Assembly (NCBI GenBank): GCA_965222225.1
Contig: CBDCTK010000002.1
Coordinates: 1,248,001 to 1,312,000 of the forward strand
Origin: Candidatus Poribacteria bacterium
GTDB lineage: Bacteria > Poribacteria > WGA-4E > JAJDTR01
Direction of reading: 5' to 3'
Length of the DNA stretch: 64,000 nt
Part shown: piece by piece, positions 16,976-18,386 of the stretch
Numbering within the stretch: the first letter of the stretch is position 1
How the letters are laid out: each line of letters begins with the position of its first letter
Translations under genes and position numbers: made by a program
Notes under the pieces: generated by a model
Databases searched by the model: none
Seen by the model: only the letters and a program-made list of their open reading frames with translations
Told to the model about the DNA's origin: nothing

Positions 16976-17194
16976 ATGATTCTAATTAACGAAGAACTGT
17001 GCAGCTATTGTGGGGCATGTGTCGCTGTCTGCCCGGAAAATATCATCGATTTAGTTGACATTTATCTGAAAATAGATCAATCGAAGTGCACCGACTGCAT
17101 GCGTTGTGTTAAAGGTTGCCCGGTTGGTGTGCTTGCTCTGGAACGCAATGGTAAGGTATATTATCCAGCATATGAAGGGCGGGGATTATTTTAA
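16976..17194 (+). CDS. 2[4Fe-4S] ferredoxin
   Basis: [12 protein letters not shown] and [17 protein letters not shown] overlap with next gene. Confidence 0.93.
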
Positions 17195-18386
17195 TGTTCC
17201 ACTCCGAGTTTGATGTTATTGTCGTCGGTGCTGGCCCGGGAGGTTCGATTGCCGCGAAGGTTGCCGCCGAAAATGGCTTAAGTGTTCTGCTCTTGGAGAA
17301 ACGCCAAGAAATCGGTTCCCCCGTTCGCTGAGCGGAAGGTATCGGCACAGCGTCGCTGTGTGAATTTATTCAGCCGCATCCATCTTGGATATCCCAGCAG
17401 ATCAACGGCGGCCGACTGTTTTCGCCTAACGAAACAGCAGCTACACTTGACTTCCCGAGAGCGGGATATGTGCTTGAGCGCAAAGTCTTCGATCGCATAC
17501 TCGCGGAGATGGCAGGAGATGCCGGCCCGAGTTGCTAGTGAAAGCGAGGGTAACTACGGTCACCAAGTCGGACGACGGAGTAGTCAACGGCGTAACCTTC
17601 CGTCATTCTGGTCGTGATTACACCTGTAAAGCCAAAACGGTGATTGCCGCAGATGGAATTGAATCGCAGGTTGCGCGTTGGGCGGGAATTGATAGTACTC
17701 ACGATTTGCGCGATGTGGATATCTGCGCCCAATATTTGGTTTCAAACATTGACATCATTCCGGATCACTGTGACTTCTATGTCGGACGCGAGATTGCTCC
17801 ACGCGGATACATCTGGGTTTTTCCAAAGGGGAAAAACATTGCCAATGTAGGCGTTGGCATTGGGGGCGCCATATCCGGAAAGGGCGGCAAACTCGCCATT
17901 GATTACTTGAATGAGTTTGTAAAACGAAAATTCCCCGATGGCAAAATCTTGGCTCAAGTCGTCGGCTGTGTGCCAGTCGGCGATAGCCTACCCGACATAG
18001 TTGGCGATGGAATCCTCCTAATAGGTGATGCCGCACACCACAGCGATCCCATCTCCGGCGGCGGAATCGCTAACGCAATGTACTCAGGTCAATTCGCAGC
18101 AGAAGCCGCAGTCGAGGGAATCCGAATCGGCGATGTTTCCGCCAAGACTCTTAGCTCCTATGAGAGGCGTTGGAACAAACAAATAGGGAAGCATTTCAAG
18201 CATATATGTCGTATACGTGACGGGCTGTTTAAGTTCAGTGATGACACGTTTGATAGGTGTGCTGAAGTCATATCGAAAATGCCCAGTGAAAAAGTTACCA
18301 TGACACAAATCTTCAAAACCGTGTTAAAACACCAGCCCCGATTACTGTTGGAATTAAGACATTTGGTTCTGGCGGGCTGGGTTTAG
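17194..18386 (+). CDS. Geranylgeranyl reductase (archaeal DGGR-like); in-frame TGA at 17329-17331 (putative Sec) and one-base frameshift near 17527
   Basis: [71 protein letters not shown]. Confidence 0.88.
17345..17361 (+). promoter_or_regulatory. Putative bacterial SECIS hairpin of GGR
   Basis: GCACAGC-GTC-GCTGTGT stem-loop; G-first loop begins 21 nt after the UGA. Confidence 0.6.

Follow-up and report, generated by a model that had tools for sequence, protein, structure and literature searches.

A geranylgeranyl reductase family of Poribacteria with a probable selenocysteine codon at the active-site cysteine position

Described reductases and the locus in the window

The closest described counterpart of the enzyme considered here is the digeranylgeranylglycerophospholipid reductase of Thermoplasma acidophilum (TaGGR, PDB 3OZ2), a geranylgeranyl reductase (GGR) with which it shares a length of 397 residues, an FAD Rossmann fold, the GGR catalytic domain and the motif EIGSPVR; in the archaeal enzyme this motif is followed by Cys45, whereas in the bacterial (Poribacteria) gene it is followed by a UGA codon, putatively read as selenocysteine (Sec). 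The active-site cysteine corresponds to Cys45 in TaGGR and Cys47 in SaGGR (PMC6309074), and Cys47 is essential in SaGGR (PMC10821996). Where these two articles discuss the role of the cysteine, it is only speculated upon, electron transfer and flavin tuning being the proposals (PMC10821996, PMC6309074).

FAD selenoenzymes already known resemble the predicted enzyme in carrying Sec in place of a redox-active Cys and in recoding UGA with a downstream bacterial SECIS element, but they differ from it in fold and family and in their chemistry, which involves thiols or sulfides, whereas the C=C bonds reduced by GGR are the unactivated ones of isoprenoid lipids. Bacterial SECIS elements are stem-loops located just 3' of the UGA, with a G in the apical loop and a consensus spacing, and new Sec/Cys families are found regularly. 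A Sec-containing GGR was not found in the literature on selenoproteins, GGR and Poribacteria. Furthermore, the main text of a 2026 inventory of 119 prokaryotic selenoprotein families, the supplementary tables of which might list such an enzyme, contains none of the terms 'geranyl', 'lipid', 'isoprenoid', TIGR02032, PF01494, PF22578, FixC or Poribacteria (PMC13188914). As far as the literature and this main text go, they agree with the preliminary description of the locus, which did not know GGR as a characterised selenoprotein.

The window analyzed here is a 64,000-nt stretch of contig CBDCTK010000002.1 from a Candidatus Poribacteria genome (G000; completeness 94.87%), and all coordinates below refer to it unless stated otherwise. 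The features of interest are:

11216..12235, + strand: second UbiA-family prenyltransferase (Pfam UbiA 70.8 bits; NCBIfam matches weak only)
12309..13169, + strand: UbiA prenyltransferase, DGGGP synthase-like (Pfam UbiA 138 bits)
16976..17194, + strand: 2x[4Fe-4S] ferredoxin, 72 aa (Pfam Fer4, Fer4_10)
17194..17526, + strand: GGR 5' segment with FAD Rossmann fold, putative Sec codon and start of the substrate/FAD domain (Pfam FAD-binding families)
17329..17331, + strand: UGA, codon 46, in the motif PVR-U-AEG, U being the predicted Sec (TGA conservation and alignment to Cys45 of 3oz2_A)
17339..17367, + strand: SECIS-like stem-loop (pairing, covariation, synonymous constraint)
17526..17527, + strand: one-base deletion, the G of GGCGCC being gone (alignment with 5 relatives; run contigs)
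17527..18386, + strand: GGR 3' segment in the +2 frame, catalytic and C-terminal domains (Pfam PF22578 GGR_cat, 93.5 bits)
18423..19193, + strand: geranylgeranylglyceryl phosphate synthase, PcrB/GGGPS family (Pfam PcrB; NF003198; TIGR01769)

Translation bore out the proposal that the GGR frame opens at ATG 17194, a start missed by the open reading frame track, and that it meets a TGA at codon 46. The start codon shares one base with the TAA of the ferredoxin gene (TAATG), and the frame then encodes a GxGxxG FAD Rossmann fold and EIGSPVR before reaching the TGA at 17329-17331. The 5' segment is 92-96% identical to the N-termini of same-genus relatives; the 3' segment, entered in the track as 17532-18386 and closed by a TAG at 18384-18386, is 95% identical to residues 112-397 of an intact relative.

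Membership in the GGR family was evident from several profiles. The intact relative P0002 scored 242.1 bits against TIGR02032 (cut-off 158.8), the 3' segment of the window exceeded the PF22578 cut-off of 27 bits, and the N-terminal motif VGAGPGG lies in a region matched by Pfam FAD_binding_2/3 and NAD_binding_8. An intact relative aligned with the Thermoplasma enzyme (3oz2_A) over residues 5-392 with an E value of 3.3e-80. The DGGGPL reductase equivalogs NF041160 (303.8 versus a cut-off of 780) and NF041080 (178.9 versus 580) were matched below their cut-offs, and the former score sets the Poribacteria enzyme apart from the PDB 3OZ2 enzyme. In the alignment with 3oz2_A, which is gapless before the motif, codon 46 coincides with chain residue 45, a cysteine, as expected from the original suggestion of Sec at the active-site position; the redox-active position of TaGGR Cys45 and SaGGR Cys47 is occupied by a UGA, to be read as Sec, and not by a literal Cys. 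Accordingly aligned, the locus would encode a 397-residue FAD-dependent GGR of the archaeal digeranylgeranylglycerophospholipid reductase type in which the essential flavin-adjacent cysteine would be replaced by Sec (U46).

Overall, we consider it highly probable (roughly 90%) that the locus belongs to a GGR family with a Sec-coding UGA at the active-site cysteine, presumably acting in ether-lipid saturation, of which the copy in the window is broken or mis-read. The proposal of a Sec-GGR draws on codon conservation, Sec/Cys alternation, RNA covariation, synonymous constraint, the presence of the machinery, GGR homology and synteny.

The in-frame UGA, its alternation with cysteine and the hairpin behind it

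Among 41 genomes (G000 and 40 relatives), 26 carry the GGR gene, and in 26/26 a single TGA is present inside the match, at an identical position in the translations (PVR*AEGI). In all 25 relatives of this set the frame is intact, with a length of 397-433 codons and the TGA as its sole internal stop. A phylum-wide search covering 176 Poribacteria genomes returned a GGR match in 56. Within the same order, 41 relatives matched, and the TGA was found in 40 of the 40 that cover codon 46, spread over four families and mostly with an intact frame of 397 codons (the match of G062, located at a contig end, is partial and does not reach this codon). In the other orders and classes, 14 genomes matched; leaving aside the partial match of G044, the remaining 13 cover codon 46 without a stop, and all 13 homologues fetched from them read PVRCAE. 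The alternation of TGA and TGY that had been anticipated at this codon is thus present, and the TGA is not confined to a single genome. In a strict-pattern scan that included the flanking motif, 37 stretches were recovered, 35 of them from records with Candidatus Poribacteria in the title and 2 from records titled 'uncultured bacterium'; Sec-GGRs in which this motif differs may exist in other phyla.

The Cys-type enzymes of the other orders (L069-L081) are 49-67% identical to the Sec-type enzyme and share the PVR-C-AE motif, and several reside in the same UbiA-Fer4-GGR-GGGPS neighbourhood; they differ in having TGY for TGA, in lacking a conserved hairpin and in falling outside the single clade formed by the Sec forms. 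In a quick maximum-likelihood tree (IQ-TREE; 30 Sec rows, 12 Cys rows, one short locus being left out, and 4 database proteins), a single branch (SH-aLRT 99) sets all Sec forms apart, nested among the Cys forms. The root is a midpoint root only, the 4 database proteins meant as outgroup not having behaved as such, and a change from Cys to Sec is the parsimonious reading of this midpoint-rooted sequence tree. This reading would imply a single replacement of Cys by Sec, in the stem lineage of one Poribacteria order.

Lesions were observed in two further Sec-GGR genes, namely a frameshift after about codon 77 in G087 (L082) and a TAG at a conserved Trp codon in G135 (L083). These may reflect either sequencing errors or decay.

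The preliminary description had also pointed to a hairpin, GCACAGC-GTC-GCTGTGT (17345-17361), with a G-first loop 21 nt past the UGA. This element proved to be real in its geometry, with a 7-bp upper stem (17345-17351 paired with 17355-17361) and a GUC triloop (17352-17354) whose G at 17352 follows the A of the TGA at a distance of 21 nt, and it is conserved and covarying in the Sec forms, being present in 26/26 Sec genes. The lower stem (17339-17343 with 17363-17367) is weak in the genus of the window, and of 25 rows, 11 lack the pair of alignment columns 27-53 and 16 lack that of columns 30-50. In the 26-row alignment, 89.3% of 299 cells are paired, compared to 25-55% after sliding of the partner columns. 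Compensatory changes were found at pairs 33-47 (CG to UA), 34-46 (AU to GC) and 38-42 (CG to AU/UA). The covariation score amounted to 0.253 versus 0.178 in shuffles, and neither this score nor the percentage paired was reached in any of 500 shuffles, a figure to be taken as indicative and not as a probability, the rows being kin. The number of pairs with changes on both sides (3) and that of further pair types (11) were not above the shuffles, which reached them in 83/500 and 290/500 cases, respectively. Two of the compensatory changes entail amino acid replacements in both arms of the stem (Thr to Ala with Cys to His), and in one genus the stem has been rebuilt by coordinated residue changes, from GTASLC to GAPALH.

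The mean minimum free energy of the 24-nt site was -9.4 kcal/mol in 26 Sec forms versus -3.4 kcal/mol in 13 Cys forms, and no conserved structure was found at the hairpin site of these 13 Cys forms. Synonymous variation was analyzed using 28 Sec open reading frames (2 of 30 were dropped for N or length). The eight lowest third-position-entropy windows of 12 codons, among 329, start at codons 44-51, and four-fold-type codons in these windows carry 0.74 bits as compared to 1.61 bits gene-wide. Such a minimum of synonymous variation at the hairpin is characteristic of an RNA element embedded in a coding sequence. Upstream of the TGA, codons 41 and 43 retain the same residue throughout despite high third-position variability (entropy about 1.75 bits), which argues that the part upstream of the TGA is translated; downstream of the TGA, too, the protein is conserved amid synonymous variation. 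An Rfam scan of 17250-17450 at E<=10 returned chance matches only (mir-194 and fiv_FSE).

When the 60 nt after the Cys codon were searched in Cys forms, a 6-7-bp hairpin was observed at about the SECIS place in L070 and L071 (G047 and G048; 65-66% identity), which belong to the Cys forms closest to the Sec clade, with -7.0 and -6.5 kcal/mol, respectively; the nearest Cys form, L069, is without such a hairpin. The hairpins of L070 and L071 could be a SECIS relic, a SECIS precursor or a product of chance.

All four components of the Sec machinery that the preliminary description had named (selA, selB, selC and selD) are present in G000. selA, selB (above its cut-off) and a tRNA-SeC with anticodon tca form one cluster at C2:1590469-1593762 of the genome, and selD is located at C2:2933348-2934274. 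The latter gene has an in-frame TGA of its own, at the known Sec/Cys site of selD, followed by a hairpin with a G-first (GGG) triloop at a spacing similar to that of the GGR hairpin. SelA was found in 164/176 Poribacteria genomes, including most Cys-GGR lineages, so that Sec use is phylum-wide and the switch in GGR lineage-specific. In two Cys-GGR families SelA was not found, namely in 0/3 genomes of f5 (G044-G046) and 0/1 of f7 (G048), at completeness values of 76-95%; the other Cys-GGR families do have SelA, and some lineages (f5, f7) may have lost Sec use.

The TGA could in principle be an ordinary stop or nonsense codon, leaving either a gene that is dead throughout the lineage or a protein that begins downstream and is devoid of its first 46 residues. 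Public gene callers annotate the locus in this manner, and, among the best 120 of 4315 protein database matches, those at least 68% identical cover at most 87% of the query, while those covering at least 93% are at most 67% identical; no selenoprotein annotation was found among the same 120. We nevertheless regard this explanation as very improbable. The codon is kept in every informative relative across four families, an exactly single internal stop is found in 25/25 relatives, and the 45 upstream codons are conserved as protein with varying third positions and include the GxGxxG motif, which the enzyme requires for FAD binding. Moreover, homologues have their essential Cys at exactly this site. 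Still less credible, to the point of being nearly negligible, is a general reassignment of TGA to a standard amino acid in Poribacteria (e.g. table 4 or 25) with no involvement of selenium. The open frame itself speaks for it, and nothing further. In the window, TGA closes 13/37 open frames of at least 250 codons and is thus an ordinary stop elsewhere; the aligned residue of homologues is Cys and neither Trp nor Gly; and the genome holds the full Sec machinery along with a selD that has a TGA at its own known Sec/Cys site. Taken together, these results favor Sec insertion, and we infer that SelB and tRNA-Sec most likely decode the UGA at 17329-17331 as Sec under the direction of the stem-loop located 14-30 nt downstream.

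Genomic neighbourhood and the predicted lipid pathway

A ferredoxin gene is located directly upstream of GGR in 28/30 Sec loci and 10/13 Cys loci, and GGGPS adjoins GGR in 24/30 Sec loci. The order UbiA-Fer4-GGR-GGGPS recurs in Sec and Cys lineages, with UbiA directly upstream of the ferredoxin in many relatives; in the window, the two UbiA genes lie 4-6 kb upstream of GGR. The GGGP synthase was assigned at 289.7 bits with NF003198 (cut-off 247) and 218.7 bits with TIGR01769 (cut-off 161.55), and the DGGGPS-like UbiA scored 206.3 bits against NF009521, below the cut-off of 296.

Among the matches listed, Cys-type Fer4-GGR fusions of 465-480 aa (P0078-P0111), about 50% identical, occur in other Poribacteria lineages, and the GGR matches of G041 and G042 lie in open frames of 475-477 aa. 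By Rosetta-stone reasoning, such fusions hint at the neighbouring ferredoxin as the electron donor of GGR. For the GGR of Methanosarcina acetivorans, the ferredoxin of the same locus is the specific reductant (Ogawa et al. 2014, cited in PMC10821996). The Poribacteria locus is alike in pairing GGR with a ferredoxin gene, here by a stop/start overlap and elsewhere by fusion; it differs in that the Methanosarcina protein is a Cys enzyme, while electron transfer from the Poribacteria ferredoxin is a deduction. Considering the fusions, the ferredoxin-dependent Methanosarcina GGR and the synteny, the enzyme would probably take its electrons from the translationally coupled 2x[4Fe-4S] ferredoxin and have ether-lipid chains as its substrate.

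Saturation of archaeal-type ether lipids is the process suggested by the coupled ferredoxin together with the GGGP synthase and the DGGGPS-like UbiA; the latter two would make the ether lipids, and GGR would probably saturate their geranylgeranyl chains. A substrate of the DGGGP type is suggested by the synteny with GGGPS and the DGGGPS-like UbiA only. CarS (PF01864) was not found in G000 (completeness as above), and PF13685 (G1P dehydrogenase) gave four weak Fe-ADH matches in this genome.

Three further observations were made around the operon. The interval of about 1 kb upstream of the ferredoxin-GGR operon (15950-16975) holds short open reading frames only and may carry a promoter or regulatory element. 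At 15003-15617 (+), a 204-aa open reading frame contains two internal repeats (…YN[IV]YIPSGDSGVEVHRMK.WLRQ…) and has no Pfam match. A PhyH gene (phytanoyl-CoA dioxygenase family; 23664-24452, +) lies about 5 kb downstream of GGR/GGGPS, behind hrcA-grpE-dnaJ-prmA; a link to phytanyl chains is no more than a conjecture.

State of the gene in the window and meaning of the family

The one-base deletion near 17527 that had been noted as breaking the gene was confirmed by comparison with five same-genus relatives, G000 reading GCCGGC-CCGAG where these read GCCGGCGCCGAG, such that one G is missing after 17526. To follow up the proposed sequence check at 17329 and 17527, contigs (not reads) from public runs were aligned to 17100-18500, namely X1, X3 (RNA), X4 (probably DNA) and X17 (RNA). 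The TGA is unchanged in the contigs of all four runs, while the G is absent only in X1. The X3, X4 and X17 contigs, from three other studies, are >99% identical to the window (1-8 substitutions over some 1400 nt) and contain the missing G. Contigs from metatranscriptomic runs (two runs, two studies) span the whole gene with the TGA kept and the frame intact, it being understood that RNA-library contigs can contain DNA. The X1 contigs match the deletion at a word depth of about 77 without an alternative form; this run, in which 0.99 of the words occur, probably supplied the data for the window assembly, and is hence not independent. The frameshift is private to this strain or data set, and the family as such is thus taken to be functional. 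A second private change was observed at 17411 (G>C), where G000 encodes Gly73 and the relatives of the order as well as the X3/X4/X17 contigs encode Ala.

Programmed frameshifting at 17526 was rejected, since GCC GGC CCG does not fit the X XXY YYZ pattern of a slippery site and the relatives have one more G. A motif-specific basecalling error at GGCGCC was likewise rejected, as 2018 such sites are kept in G000.

The copy in the window is either a very recent pseudogene or the product of a read or consensus error, and we lean slightly towards real inactivation. A true one-base deletion, by which the strain would no longer make the full-length enzyme although the Sec-GGR family as such is real, seems somewhat the likelier state of affairs. 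The deletion appears in the window and again in the X1 contigs at the depth given, the undepleted GGCGCC sites make a motif-wide basecalling error unlikely, and the neighbouring genes in 9-26 kb look intact, so that the assembly does not appear riddled with frameshifts. The private Gly73 and the lesions of G087 and G135, which show that damage to the Sec-GGR gene occurs, are in line with inactivation as well. Against it stand the probable origin of the assembly from X1, the presence of the G in the nearly identical contigs of three other studies, the failure to find a second GGR in G000 at E<=1e-30, and an otherwise intact operon. Conversely, a sequencing or consensus error, leaving the strain with an intact Sec-GGR like that of its relatives, is a serious possibility to which we give a little less than even weight. 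The lesion is a single base in a protein otherwise 92-96% identical to intact relatives, and three near-identical populations have the G; yet the context (GGC-CC) is not a long homopolymer, and an independent contig build of X1 repeats the deletion at high depth. The comparison comprises 4 runs, as contigs rather than reads, which also weakens the case for an error.

For the family as a whole, the results provide good support for a selenoprotein family that is apparently undescribed and represents the Sec variant of a known enzyme. With lesser but still considerable confidence, we regard it as likely that Sec-GGR is an unlisted family and the first selenoenzyme of membrane-lipid (isoprenoid-chain) saturation, with saturated archaeal-type ether lipids being selenium-dependent in one order with sponge-associated and pelagic members. 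Public annotation truncates Sec-GGR in all these genomes, and lipid pathway reconstructions for Poribacteria thus rest on truncated gene models, because the public gene calls cut the gene short.

If true, Sec at the flavin would offer a naturally occurring means of probing what the essential cysteine of GGR does in catalysis, and the comparison of Sec-GGR with its Cys sister enzymes (65-67% identity) would give a direct handle on the mechanism. Sec would presumably confer a catalytic benefit on the enzyme, and the Sec version may give a more active catalyst for isoprenoid reduction. Selenium use would extend to membrane-lipid biosynthesis and, in an uncultured phylum of sponge symbionts, would be linked with the bacterial set of 'archaeal-lipid' genes (GGGPS, DGGGPS-like, GGR).
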